From positions 416,124 through 480,123 of the forward strand of contig JBHLLT010000001.1 in NCBI GenBank assembly GCA_048938855.1: a stretch of DNA of 64,000 nucleotides, written 5' to 3'. The position numbers and the translations under genes were made by a program. The notes below the pieces were generated by a model. The model searched no databases, was not told the origin of the DNA, and was given only the letters and a program-made list of their open reading frames with translations. The stretch comes from Promethearchaeota archaeon (GTDB taxonomy: Archaea; Asgardarchaeota; Lokiarchaeia; Sigyniarchaeales; SOKP01). Of the stretch, positions 4,542 to 21,018 are shown one piece after another (the first letter of the stretch is position 1; every line of letters begins with the position of its first letter).

Positions 4542-4702
4542 ATTTATCAAACCAATTTTATATGATAACCTAAAATAATTATTTATAAATTTTAAATTTT
4601 ATTAGTTCTGGTTAGTTCTTTTTGAAGAGCATCTTTATAATAAAAAATAATTTAAATCTTATTTACATAATGTTAATAAAAACATATTAATTGAGATTAT
4701 AA

Positions 4703-5620
4703 ATGTTCAAAGAGAAATTTAGCGAAGGAGTCATTAGTGCTAAGCAATTTGATAGAGAAGATATTGAATATATTTTAAAGAAAGGCAAAGAAATGATTAA
4801 TATAAAGAATTCCAATCTTCTTCAAGGAAAAATTTTAGCTACACTATTTTTTGAACCCTCTACTCGAACTCGTCTTAGCTTTGAATCTGCGATGTATAGA
4901 TTAGGTGGAAGTGTAATTGGATTTCATTCTGGAGATGTGTCTTCAATAAAAAAAGGCGAAAGTATCGCTGATACAATAAGAACTGTAGAAAATTATAGTG
5001 ATTGTATTGTTATGAGGCATTCGCTTGAAGGGGCAGCACGAATGGCATCTAAATTTTCTAAAGTTCCTATAATTAATGCAGGTTCTGGAAGTGGAGAACA
5101 TCCAACTCAAGCCTTATTAGATCTTTTAACGATTACAGAGGAAGTTGGTTCATTAGATGGTTTAAATATCGGTTTGATGGGAGATTTAAAATATGGAAGG
5201 ACAGTTCATTCCCTTTCAATTCTTTTATCGAATTTTGATATAAATGTTTATTTTATTAGTCCTATTGAATTGAGAATGAGAAATCGAGATAAAGATTTTC
5301 TACAACAGCAACAAGTCAAATATAAAGAAATCACTGACTACCGAAAAATTCTAAATATTCTAGATGTACTTTATATGACTCGGATTCAAAAAGAAAGGTT
5401 TGCTGATTTAGAGGATTATGAAAAAATAAAAGAGTACTATATTTTCAATGAAGATGACCTTAATGATACAAAAGATAATTTCAGATTGTTGCATCCCCTT
5501 CCAAGAATCACAGAAATTTCTCCATATGTTGATAGTTCCGAAAAAGCAATTTACTTCAAACAGACTTATTATGGAATCCCTATGAGAAAGGCTCTCTTAG
5601 CAGAATTGATGACAGATTGA
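4703..5620 (+). CDS. pyrB: Aspartate carbamoyltransferase catalytic subunit
   Basis: FFEPSTRTRLSFE, HPTQALLD, GDLKYGRTVHS, HPLPR. Confidence 0.97.
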   Translation: MFKEKFSEGVISAKQFDREDIEYILKKGKEMINIKNSNLLQGKILATLFFEPSTRTRLSFESAMYRLGGSVIGFHSGDVSSIKKGESIADTIRTVENYSDCIVMRHSLEGAARMASKFSKVPIINAGSGSGEHPTQALLDLLTITEEVGSLDGLNIGLMGDLKYGRTVHSLSILLSNFDINVYFISPIELRMRNRDKDFLQQQQVKYKEITDYRKILNILDVLYMTRIQKERFADLEDYEKIKEYYIFNEDDLNDTKDNFRLLHPLPRITEISPYVDSSEKAIYFKQTYYGIPMRKALLAELMTD

Positions 5621-5656: not shown

Positions 5657-7609
5657 TTATTGAATAGAATCTTTTAGTAAAACAGCACTAATTTTGGATT
5701 CAATAACACTTTTTAGAGAATTTAGTAAAGTTTTTTCGTTTCTTTTTGTTTCTAGAGTAAACAAAGATCCTCTGTCGAAAATCTTTTGAAATTTTTTGAA
5801 TAACGCAATTTTTTTATTAAAAGAAAGATTGGACGTATCTCTTATTAAACTTGAAGAATAGCTTCTCATTTTCGTGTTATATTGTTTATCCCCATCATAC
5901 AGTTGATTGTTTAAATAAGAATCATAATGAGGCTGGCTTAGAACAAAATTTTTATCATGAGTGTTATTTTTTTCCATTATTATCATCTTCATTAGATTAA
6001 GTATTCTTAGGGCAAAAGATTCGCTATTTTCTGTTTTATCAAGTTCAATTCCACAATGATTACAAATAGCTTCATTAAGACCAAAAAAACTAATAGATTT
6101 TAAAGCATTTTTTAATATTTCGTTTTTATCACTTTTCAAAAGATTTGAAACAATGAAATTCCATTGTTTTAGTGAATTTAGTTTCTTCTGTACTAATTTT
6201 TCTTTATAATTGAACAATTCAAAAACAAGATTAATTTTTTCTTGTAAGAGTTCTAAAAATTTTTCATCATTTTGCTTAGCTTCTTCGGATATGCTGTGTA
6301 AGTTAATTAGAATTTTATCTAAGATTACCTGATCTATTTGCGGATTTGCTATTTGAATTATGGATGAATTAAAGAAATCTGAATTGGACTTATTATATAA
6401 AATAACATTATTTTTCAGATTATTAGTAATTAGATTTAGAATATTTTGATTTCGAGAATATTCGAATATGAAAAAAGGTGTGACACCGTTTTTACATCTT
6501 GAATTTATTGACTTAAGAAATGCTTCATCAATAAATCTTTGATCTGCAGGACACTCATCGTAACTAAACTCAAGAGTTACAGAAGATTTTATCTTATCAT
6601 TATTATTATTAAAACTAATAATTTGTGATGTTAAGATTGGGAAATCAGAAGATATTGCTTTTGTCAATGAAAATCTAGAAAGGAATTGGTTATTAAAATT
6701 CCCTAGTACTAAATCCTCAGAGCAAAATTGTCTCAAATTATACAGCAGATCTGAGAGAAAAATAATTAATTCTGAATGGCCTAGCTTCTCCTTTAATTTA
6801 TTTTTTAAATCGTTATGTTCATTAAGTAGATAATCCATTATTGTTTTAGAATCGATGTATATACTTAAAGGTCTTAAAGCCCAATAATTTAAATGCAAAA
6901 GAGCAATTTCTCCAGATAAATATAAATCAGCTAAATTTTTAGGAATAAGATTAAGAAGTAAAAACTGCTCTGAAACATCAGAACCTAATTTTTCAATAAA
7001 TGTAACAGGATTTATATCTATAGATTTAGATTCAAATAATTTAAATACTTCAAAAGGGGGCGTTCCCAGTCGAGTTAATTTATGCCTTACTTCTTCTAAA
7101 CCATTTTCTAGTAAAATTGCATTAATATATTCCCGCATTAATGGAGCAGTTAGATATTCTATATTTGTCTTAGAAAGACGTTCTTCTACTTCACGAGCAA
7201 TTTGTCGAGCCAAATATTGCTCCAATTCTCCCTCTGTTACTAAATATTCCTCAATTTTTCTAGTATCAAAAAGTTCCTTAGAATATTTTGAAGTTCTGAT
7301 CATTTTAGTTTGATATTGCTGATCTATAATCTCTTCAATAGATAAGATCTTATCGATAATTTGCGCTCCTAAAATTGTAATTGTATAACCTTCTTCAGAA
7401 GAATCTATCAATTCACTTTTTTTTAGCGTGTTTAAATGAAATGACAAATTTACTGAAGAAAGATCGTTTCCTAAAACCTCTTTTTGTATCACTGAAAATG
7501 GCAAAGGTGTTTGCATGTTTTTCAGCCTTTTTAGAATATCGATTCTAACCTTCTGACCTAAAGTTTTTAGTTGTTTTTCTAAGAGATTAGGATTTTTGTC
7601 GGTATCCAC
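5657..7609 (-). CDS. ArsR-type wHTH + ATP-cone + degenerate class III ribonucleotide reductase (NrdD-like) fusion
   Basis: R.DILK.L...LSFHLNTL...Y.IT.LG (wHTH); IRTS..FD..KI...YLTAPLMREYIN (ATP cone); LSGEIALLHL, SISFFGLNEA (NrdD barrel); no C-terminal glycyl-radical loop. Confidence 0.8.
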   Translation of the reverse strand: MDTDKNPNLLEKQLKTLGQKVRIDILKRLKNMQTPLPFSVIQKEVLGNDLSSVNLSFHLNTLKKSELIDSSEEGYTITILGAQIIDKILSIEEIIDQQYQTKMIRTSKYSKELFDTRKIEEYLVTEGELEQYLARQIAREVEERLSKTNIEYLTAPLMREYINAILLENGLEEVRHKLTRLGTPPFEVFKLFESKSIDINPVTFIEKLGSDVSEQFLLLNLIPKNLADLYLSGEIALLHLNYWALRPLSIYIDSKTIMDYLLNEHNDLKNKLKEKLGHSELIIFLSDLLYNLRQFCSEDLVLGNFNNQFLSRFSLTKAISSDFPILTSQIISFNNNNDKIKSSVTLEFSYDECPADQRFIDEAFLKSINSRCKNGVTPFFIFEYSRNQNILNLITNNLKNNVILYNKSNSDFFNSSIIQIANPQIDQVILDKILINLHSISEEAKQNDEKFLELLQEKINLVFELFNYKEKLVQKKLNSLKQWNFIVSNLLKSDKNEILKNALKSISFFGLNEAICNHCGIELDKTENSESFALRILNLMKMIIMEKNNTHDKNFVLSQPHYDSYLNNQLYDGDKQYNTKMRSYSSSLIRDTSNLSFNKKIALFKKFQKIFDRGSLFTLETKRNEKTLLNSLKSVIESKISAVLLKDSIQ

Positions 7610-7927
7610 TTTAATTATTAACCCTGTTCTAATTTGTTAATTTTGTATAACATAATATTATATCTTTTATATATATAAAAATTTAGAAATATTCTTCATG
7701 TTCTGTGGATAAGGATAATACGTGGGTGATATTAAACCACAATTTAAAAGAATTGATTTATATCTCAATCATTTTCATATTTTTGGCATTCAAATTTCTA
7801 AATTTTAATTCAATTTTTTAACTATAAAAACTGGACTACAAATAGCTTTAATAATTATATACCAATTTTTTAGATATTAACTAATTTTAAAGTATAGGTT
7901 GATAACAGAATCTTAAAAGTGTATTTT

Positions 7928-20629: not shown

Positions 20630-21018
20630 TAGTACAAAAAAGGATAAACTGATGTGTCAGAATTATTAAAATGTAAAAATTTGACATAAATTAATGCCCA
20701 TTTTTTTATCTCATATAATATATATAATGGTTGGGAGAAAATGTTCCACCAGAATATATTCATTCATCTAGTGTTAAAATTTGAATTTTTTATCTGAAAT
20801 CAAAAATTGATCCTTTTATAGTAATAGATTTTAATAGTAAATAATTACTCAATTTTTTTCGTCAATTTTTTTTGTCGACTACATTTGAGTGATCACATAC
20901 ATCGGATTAACATTGATCAACCAACACATTTAAATATAAGAAATACTAATTAAAATTTAAATACTCTTTAAAAAAAAGGTTAAAAAAATAATTATTAATA
21001 AAGTGGAGGAAAAATAAA

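Follow-up and report, generated by a model that had tools for sequence, protein, structure and literature searches.

Introduction

Several metabolite-sensing regulators derive from enzymes: NrtR joins a Nudix domain to a winged helix-turn-helix (wHTH), and the Bacillus regulators PurR and PyrR have a phosphoribosyltransferase fold. In each, an impaired enzyme of nucleotide metabolism has been reused as the sensor for the regulator of its own pathway, and the gene described here appears to be a similar case built on a ribonucleotide reductase (RNR). It lies in a 64,000-nucleotide stretch of DNA, called the window below, from a Promethearchaeota archaeon of the Lokiarchaeia (assembly GCA_048938855.1, contig JBHLLT010000001.1, positions 416,124–480,123), and its 650-residue product consists of a wHTH, an ATP cone and a catalytically dead barrel of the class III RNR, NrdD. 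In contrast to NrtR, PurR and PyrR, the scaffold is an RNR and the sensor appears to be the allosteric cone, the old active site being eroded.

The closest enzyme is NrdD itself (PDB 8P23, 9D3X and 4COI; TIGR02487; archaeal ATP-cone type), with which the protein shares a cone followed by a class III barrel and, as modelled, a similar dimer interface. Unlike NrdD, it carries an N-terminal wHTH and lacks the first active-site cysteine, the finger-loop cysteine, the NxN flap and the glycyl-radical loop, and in this lineage the Zn ribbon as well; it is kept in genomes where the activase NrdG was not found, and databases still name it NrdD. The closest regulator is NrdR, the bacterial RNR repressor, described in PMC9110341 as a Zn ribbon followed by an ATP cone. 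Both proteins join a cone to a DNA-binding domain and show the E-x-F-x3-K spacing, and the sequence data suggest linkage to more than one class of RNR gene and probable autoregulation as further likenesses. However, our protein has a wHTH instead of the N-terminal Zn ribbon, is 650 residues long including the dead barrel as against about 150, gives no NrdR family match, and has a cone of the archaeal NrdD type and a candidate site that is a non-palindromic 9-mer. With its different DNA-binding domain and architecture it is not an NrdR, but it probably works like one. Regulators of the ArsR/SmtB type (DUF7347, HTH_20) share the wHTH with its long C-terminal helix, but here the match falls under the family cut-off, metal-sensing residues are not evident, and the domain is fused to about 550 residues of RNR-derived sequence.

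NrdR is reported as rare in archaea (PMC9110341), so that the tuning of RNR transcription in most archaea is an open question. We found no description of this family in the literature, within a coverage that leaves out most subscription papers. The protein is probably an adenine-nucleotide-sensing, dimeric transcription factor for RNR genes, derived from a duplicated class III RNR and analogous to NrdR, for which we infer binding of both DNA and nucleotide.

Results

Domain architecture and fold

Pfam placed the DUF7347 wHTH at residues 14–88 (E 3e-9) and NRDD at residues 433–637 (E 2.5e-15) of the 650-residue protein. Two NCBIfam models did not reach their cut-offs, the ArsR/SmtB-type model NF033788 (E 3e-5) scoring 23.6 bits against 55 and the NrdD model TIGR02487 scoring 44 bits against 326. 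The AlphaFold model, built on a 147-row alignment, had a mean pLDDT (predicted local distance difference test) of 89.9 and a pTM (predicted template modelling score) of 0.81, with four helices and a wing in the wHTH. This domain (residues 10–99) ends in a long linker helix and has SVNLSFHL as its recognition helix. The 10-stranded barrel of class III enzymes is present in the model, and Foldseek ranks 1–36 were class III RNRs throughout (E 5.7e-19 to 9DCA). An earlier note, made from the DNA letters alone, had proposed a wHTH, an ATP cone and an eroded NrdD barrel, and Pfam, the model and the Foldseek ranking all bear this out.

Loss of the catalytic apparatus

Motifs were counted in an alignment of 161 rows of the pseudo-NrdD family with 13 intact NrdDs. 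The first conserved cysteine (RPFC), present in 13/13 intact enzymes, is Ser249 here, as the earlier note had read from RPLS; a cysteine anywhere within the alignment interval around this position was found in 7/161 family rows as against 13/13 intact NrdDs. The finger loop is shortened and free of cysteine (residues 407–426), and its CCR/GCS-type motif occurs in 0/161 family rows compared with 11/13 intact enzymes. The note had reported the absence of a GCR finger-loop cysteine, which holds for the cysteine and not for the motif, CCR being the form in this clade. Likewise, the glycyl-radical loop R[IVT]xGY is found in 0/161 rows versus 13/13. The chain stops at the last barrel strand, just short of the CxxC-CxxC Zn ribbon and RITGY, where the note had put its end; the ribbon is kept in 67/161 family rows, its loss being specific to some lineages.

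The NxN flap and HxHD are described as substrate-binding motifs of NrdD in PMC11226230. The flap is lost here, an NxN-type motif occurring in 7/161 family rows and 13/13 intact NrdDs, and HxHD is eroded (ALLHL instead of HIHD), and so is loop 2; this corrects the note, which had taken an “HxHDL motif” as a landmark. With five defining features failing, the gene product is not an NrdD.

A split gene or frameshifted C-terminus was considered and rejected, since tblastn with the Zn/glycyl-radical tail of NrdD returned the intact nrdD alone and all three reading frames beyond the stop are closed. No separate Zn/glycyl-radical fragment was found downstream or elsewhere in the assembly. The earlier note had named recovery of the catalytic cysteine, with a separately encoded glycyl-radical domain, as the outcome that would overturn it; neither was found, in the alignment or in the assembly. 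Could the protein still be an enzyme, given its radical in trans or performing other chemistry? The barrel fold persists and N436, G510 and E513 are retained. Nevertheless both catalytic cysteines, the glycyl-radical loop and the NxN flap are gone, HxHD and loop 2 are eroded, no radical domain is supplied separately, and the gene is kept in aerobic ammonia-oxidiser-type archaea (AOA) in which the activase was not found, so that we regard such an enzyme as highly improbable.

Selection on the gene

Full-length orthologues are present in 22/24 genomes of the genus, with one more cut by a contig end, and 78 complete orthologous coding sequences contain no internal stop. In 24 disjoint pairs, counted by the simple Nei-Gojobori method with dS taken over the whole gene, dN/dS came to 0.074 in the cone, 0.148 in the wHTH, 0.125 in residues 186–250 and 0.292 in the barrel (residues 251–650). 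Because stops are absent and dN/dS is well below 1 in every segment, the gene is not decaying. A decaying duplicate, or a chance fusion without function, could have been suspected from a barrel only about 20% identical to NrdD that evolves 2–4 times faster than the N-terminal domains; the intact copies, the purifying selection in each domain and conservation in two phyla refute it, and we give it a negligible chance. Frameshifted or absent orthologues were the other outcome the note had set against itself; the orthologues are instead intact and under purifying selection. That the protein is a pseudoenzyme maintained by selection is, in our judgement, close to certain.

ATP cone and modelled barrel dimer

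The cone residues R105, E112, F114, E126, R159, E160, R175 and R180 are kept in 155–161 of the 161 rows, and the set R105, E112, F114 and K118 is conserved in 128–160 of them. The spacing of E112, F114 and K118 equals that of E56, F58 and K62 in the adenine site of Streptomyces coelicolor NrdR, as given in PMC9110341.

A two-copy model of residues 196–650 scored 0.74 in three runs, the best of 3 controls scoring 0.03; the runs had at least 81% of contacts in common and a pLDDT of at least 83. Among solved structures, 20/30 homodimers and 1/23 monomers attain the mark set for this score. The modelled interface is formed by the long helix 198–213 and by helices 276–295 and 321–332, and class III dimers are described as making contact through the long helix and alphaA/alphaB (PMC9531940). 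This pass may stem from likeness to solved NrdD dimers, so that what it shows is a surface compatible with a dimer; the dead barrel (residues 196–650) is a probable dimerisation scaffold.

Distribution and origin

The family was searched with a wHTH+cone profile over Asgard families and 301 sampled genomes of the phylum that contains the Bathyarchaeia (Thermoproteota). It was found in 64/68 genomes of family f1, 7/7 of family f2, six further Asgard families and 189/301 Thermoproteota genomes; it was not found in f11, probably the Thorarchaeia, or in several other families scanned. Named members come from Bathyarchaeia, Aigarchaeota-type Nitrososphaeria, Nitrosopumilus, Nitrosarchaeum, Nitrosotenuis, Freyarchaeum, Atabeyarchaeum and Harpocratesius, and go in databases by the names anaerobic RNR, ArsR regulator or hypothetical. 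The “anaerobic ribonucleoside-triphosphate reductase” annotated in Nitrosopumilus, Nitrosarchaeum, Nitrosotenuis, Freyarchaeum, Atabeyarchaeum and many Lokiarchaeia is this dead copy, and is therefore no evidence of anaerobic synthesis of deoxyribonucleoside triphosphates (dNTPs).

In a 42-row tree of cone and barrel the family forms one clade (100/100), within which Asgard and Thermoproteota members separate roughly, on weak branches. This fits one origin predating the Asgard/Thermoproteota split, with long branches and transfers as a caveat.

RNR genes and genomic context

The host genome (G000, 97% complete) encodes an intact 711-residue NrdD with RPFC, QCCR, two CxxC and RITGY, an NrdG2 activase above cut-off on another contig, and an ATP-cone-bearing NrdJ-type enzyme that reads by its sequence as a monomeric class II RNR. 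The search for intact nrdD and nrdG that the note had advised thus returned both, plus nrdJ, and its remark that no activase gene lies nearby was correct. An ATP-cone search of the same genome returned no NrdR-like protein.

In 12 AOA-type genomes, assigned by gene order and sequence among others and four of them named, the gene directly precedes class II nrdJ on the same strand, at a distance of about 130–215 bp, and neither an NrdD above cut-off nor an NrdG was found. The same order recurs in G338 and two further contigs. In G356 the gene is divergent from nrdJ, in G496 it stands upstream of an intact nrdD, and in G047 it is convergent with nrdD. Two single-contig f2 (Lokiarchaeia) genomes with the gene likewise gave no intact NrdD and no NrdG above cut-off. 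Since the gene is kept where no NrdD or NrdG was found, an obligate partnership with NrdD is unlikely.

This bears on a role at the protein level, as an inactive subunit pairing with active NrdD (the note's second suggestion) or as a tether of RNR to DNA. The class III dimer surface appears, in the model, to be kept, and an intact nrdD coexists with the gene in f1 and many Bathyarchaeia. However, the gene is retained without a detected NrdD or NrdG in the 12 AOA-type genomes, G356, G338, G032 and G038, class II enzymes dimerise in a different geometry according to PMC9531940, and selection is stronger on the wHTH than on the barrel. Such a role is quite improbable, and regulation of an active NrdD partner fails as a general explanation. 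The note's first suggestion, an NrdR-analogous transcription factor, is supported by the gene context and by the promoter element described next. It is very likely that the protein is a DNA-binding regulator, and likely that RNR genes are among its targets, of whichever class the cell has in working form.

A shared promoter element

The top shared upstream word in f1 is the non-palindromic CCGACAAAA, and the consensus of this candidate operator in Lokiarchaeia is (C/T)CGACAAAA. Among f1 orthologues it lies about 78 bp downstream of a TATA-like box in 79/80 loci, mostly within codons 3–6 and, in 7 loci, in the leader before a later ATG. The Asp codon in the element is GAC at 79/80, compared with 17% of Asp codons elsewhere in these genes. 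The f3 copies fall in a different reading frame, and f2, g13 and f4 frequently have the element in reverse orientation. The codon bias, the other frames and the leader and reversed placements indicate that the constraint lies at the DNA level; a role of CGACAAAA in RNA is disfavoured by the reversed copies in f2, g13 and f4.

Upstream of nrdD in f1 the element was found in 26/27 genomes (0.4 sites expected). Upstream of nrdJ, 11/30 f1 genomes have the looser TGTCG/CGACA (2.2 sites expected), in addition to CCGATAAAA variants as in G000, and 12/12 f2/f3 genomes have the element (2.3 expected). Its distance downstream from the TATA-like box is 70–80 bp at nrdD, at many nrdJ genes and at the f1 gene itself; the f2 copies mostly have the reverse orientation and a position further upstream. 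In f11, where the fusion was not found, the element was not enriched at nrdD. No NrdR-box palindrome pairs stood out in the upstream sets, in which no search with an NrdR-box model was made. That CGACAAAA is the regulator's own site is a tentative assignment, to which we give somewhat less than an even chance.

The full wHTH-cone-barrel protein was not found in family f4, sampled by 4 genomes that are 63–88% complete. These genomes contain wHTH-only homologues of 209–239 residues, possibly truncated orthologues minus cone and barrel, whose orthology was judged by best hit, partial synteny and profile E-values of 4e-17 to 4e-11; 3/4 have the element upstream. The pattern is compatible with the wHTH as the putative binder of the element. 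Family f4 was rejected as a clean negative control, as it keeps these element-bearing homologues. Also in f4, a stand-alone ATP-cone gene heads an operon that contains nrdJ, with CGACAAAA ahead of it; stand-alone ATP-cone proteins of 141–200 residues occur throughout the order.

A second conserved element lies 31–33 bp upstream of the TATA-like box (Table 1). Of the gene's own promoters 77/80 carry it, as against none in the pyrB, nrdD and nrdJ sets, for which reason it was rejected as an RNR operator; its best genome-wide score was 29.7, the next being 18.8. The orientation of the upstream gene, tandem or divergent, makes no difference to its conservation.

One operator for all phyla, with half-site TGTCRR, was also rejected, as it is enriched in Lokiarchaeia only, marginal in AOA and absent elsewhere. 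The AOA recognition helix reads GKFAYHL where the Lokiarchaeia protein has NLSFHL. GATC occurs in AOA own and nrdJ promoters 38 and 39 times, as against 8 and 12 expected; GATC-rich regions are also found at unrelated AOA genes, so that this enrichment is a lead only. An imperfect palindrome, TGTHAA-N5-TTGA, was seen in 10/13 AOA nrdJ promoters (L394-L409, the region between this gene and nrdJ). Upstream of nrdD in 7/10 family-positive genomes other than Lokiarchaeia, mostly related Thermoproteota (L357-L363), we noted TACTCTA/TAGAGTA, a possible lineage-specific operator on sequence grounds.

Pyrimidine and replication genes

Beside RNR genes, the neighbour that recurs is pyrB, pyrI or a pyrH-like kinase; it occurs in both phyla, arranged convergently, in tandem or divergently. 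In the window the gene is convergent with pyrB, as the note had observed, with 36 bp between them. pyrB adjoins the gene in every f1 locus extending that far and in f2, f3, f5, f13, f17 and f19, with varying orientations and flanking genes, and several Bathyarchaeia/Nitrososphaeria loci have pyrB, pyrI or a pyrH-like kinase adjacent. This adjacency would suit a regulator mainly of pyrimidine synthesis (pyrB, pyrI, pyrH) whose ATP sensing balances purine and pyrimidine pools, with the RNR linkage secondary. The shared element, however, occurs in 1/76 f1 pyrB promoters, and in two AOA regions examined in full the neighbour is nrdJ and pyrB is not near. In addition, the linkage may partly reflect inheritance of the order thiolase/DUF35 - this gene - pyrB - pyrI - ATPase, and PyrI is present separately. 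A palindrome before pyrB, TTATTTACATAATGTTAATAA (window 4659–4679), was down-weighted as an operator, being unique in the genome, decaying in distant genera and overlapping a probable TATA box. We consider a mainly pyrimidine-directed role unlikely. Replacement of PyrI by the gene product was rejected, the true pyrI lying on another G000 contig.

The element also stands before genes of other kinds. In five genomes surveyed it precedes cdc6/orc1 in 3/5, and histones, TFB paralogues, ribbon-helix-helix proteins, a RadB-like gene and purS in at least two; in G000 it favours intergenic DNA (14 intergenic sites, 11 coding), and it co-occurs with the wHTH family throughout the order. A dATP/ATP sensor acting on CGACAAAA at RNR genes, cdc6, histones, TFB paralogues and purS would tie nucleotide supply to S-phase entry. 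Yet the survey comprises five genomes and its clusters mix paralogues, the cdc6 orthologue of G000 has no site within 350 bp, and the element was not seen outside the order, so that such a wider replication regulator in Lokiarchaeia has, to our mind, a small chance of being right. It is rather unlikely, too, that the dead RNR already served as RNR transcription factor in the common ancestor of Asgard and Thermoproteota and has kept this role since, and that in Lokiarchaeia it came to sense dNTPs and to control a replication regulon (nrdD, nrdJ, cdc6, histones, TFB paralogues, purS) through CCGACAAAA. A further CCGACAAAA site in the window, at 20870, is divergent from a histone-like gene.

Several results weigh against the preferred reading of the protein as a nucleotide-sensing RNR transcription factor. 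The Pfam match to the cone is weak (residues 103–174, E 0.018, under the curated cut-off). The shuffle-based enrichments overstate significance, since kin are not independent. CCGACAAAA, with 14 intergenic sites in G000, is not RNR-specific; another global factor could bind this word. The cone-nrdJ operon of f4 keeps the element although the full protein was not found there. Linkage to pyrB persists as strongly as linkage to RNR genes, although the element occurs in only 1/76 f1 pyrB promoters. No common operator was recovered across phyla. Finally, in two Thermoproteota genomes that encode this protein, an nrdR-like gene stands before nrdD.

Proposed mode of action

If the protein is an RNR transcription factor, the dead barrel would dimerise as in NrdD and carry two cone-wHTH arms. 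ATP or dATP in the cone, whose adenine-reading residues are kept, would shift the position or oligomeric state of these arms; cone ligands are described as reorganising NrdD and NrdR (PMC11226230, PMC9110341). The wHTH would in turn bind or release an operator at nrdD, at nrdJ and at the regulator's own gene, and RNR expression would in this way track the dATP/ATP ratio. An element downstream of the TATA-like box would suit repression by a roadblock at high dATP; the sign of regulation is not fixed, because the f2 elements are usually reversed and further upstream. The family is a widespread and concrete candidate for archaeal RNR regulation, with a proposed operator. If the proposal is true, this would be a second, independent case of an ATP cone governing expression of its own enzyme, and an RNR turned regulator, of which we found none described.

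Table 1. Features of the locus and related loci. Positions refer to the window unless a locus or genome is named.
Feature	Position	Strand	Basis or remark
Gene encoding the fusion of wHTH, ATP cone and dead NrdD	5657..7609	(-)	650 aa, GTG start
ArsR-like winged helix-turn-helix, aa 10-99	7313..7582	(-)	Pfam DUF7347 E 3e-9, HTH_20 weak; model helices and wing; dN/dS 0.15
ATP cone, aa 101-185	7055..7309	(-)	family-conserved residues; NrdR-like spacing; dN/dS 0.07
Catalytically dead class III RNR barrel, aa 196-650	5660..7024	(-)	Foldseek, dN/dS, homodimer model
Ser249 (RPLS versus RPFC) at the position of the conserved first active-site Cys	6863..6865	(-)	alignment with intact NrdDs
Remnant of thiyl-radical finger loop, aa 407-426, Cys-free	6332..6391	(-)	alignment with intact NrdDs
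CCGACAAAA 9-bp element, candidate operator	7594..7602	(-)	inside codons 3-6, about 78 bp downstream of TATA-like box
TATA-like box (TTTTTATATA) of own promoter, function inferred	7672..7681	(-)	sequence; conserved in orthologue loci
Second conserved element, ATATCACC-N3-TATTATC	7714..7733	(-)	31-33 bp upstream of TATA-like box
pyrB (aspartate carbamoyltransferase), convergent neighbour	4703..5620	(+)	
CCGACAAAA recurrences before genes of a possible replication regulon	G000 genome-wide; L229-L319		
Stand-alone ATP-cone protein	L003:1492-1917 (G000 C34:322614-323039); L474:608-1165; L475:2733-3335; L054:3935-4498		
Second pseudo-NrdD	L045:4918-6720, L046:5742-7541, L047:5324-7132, L048:4613-6427, L049:5294-7108, L050:5775-7574		
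f4 wHTH-only homologues	L499:1234-1863, L503:1318-2037, L507:1192-1863, L508:1198-1899		

Other observations

Many f1 genomes contain a second, independent pseudo-NrdD of about 600 residues, 42–47% identical to NrdD and without a wHTH. It lacks the catalytic cysteine and the NxN flap, ends before the Zn ribbon and is placed in the tree as sister of the Lokiarchaeia NrdD; it was not found in G000. Asgard family f30 has a third NrdD that appears to be dead (L156:5362-7554); it is sister to the f11 NrdDs, has neither the first cysteine nor the finger-loop cysteine, and reads RISTY in place of RITGY. NrdR-like genes identified by eye, each encoding 148 residues that start with a Zn ribbon, stand directly before nrdD-nrdG in the two Thermoproteota genomes mentioned above (L354:704-1150, L355:704-1150), which also contain the pseudo-NrdD family. 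In the ESM Atlas, the commonest taxon of the HTH + NRDD clusters is Nanobdellota, a lead only, by which the family or a parallel fusion may reach DPANN archaea. The frame L051:3545-7102 and several other nrdD and nrdJ frames of more than 1000 residues are enlarged intact RNR genes, in which inteins are probable.

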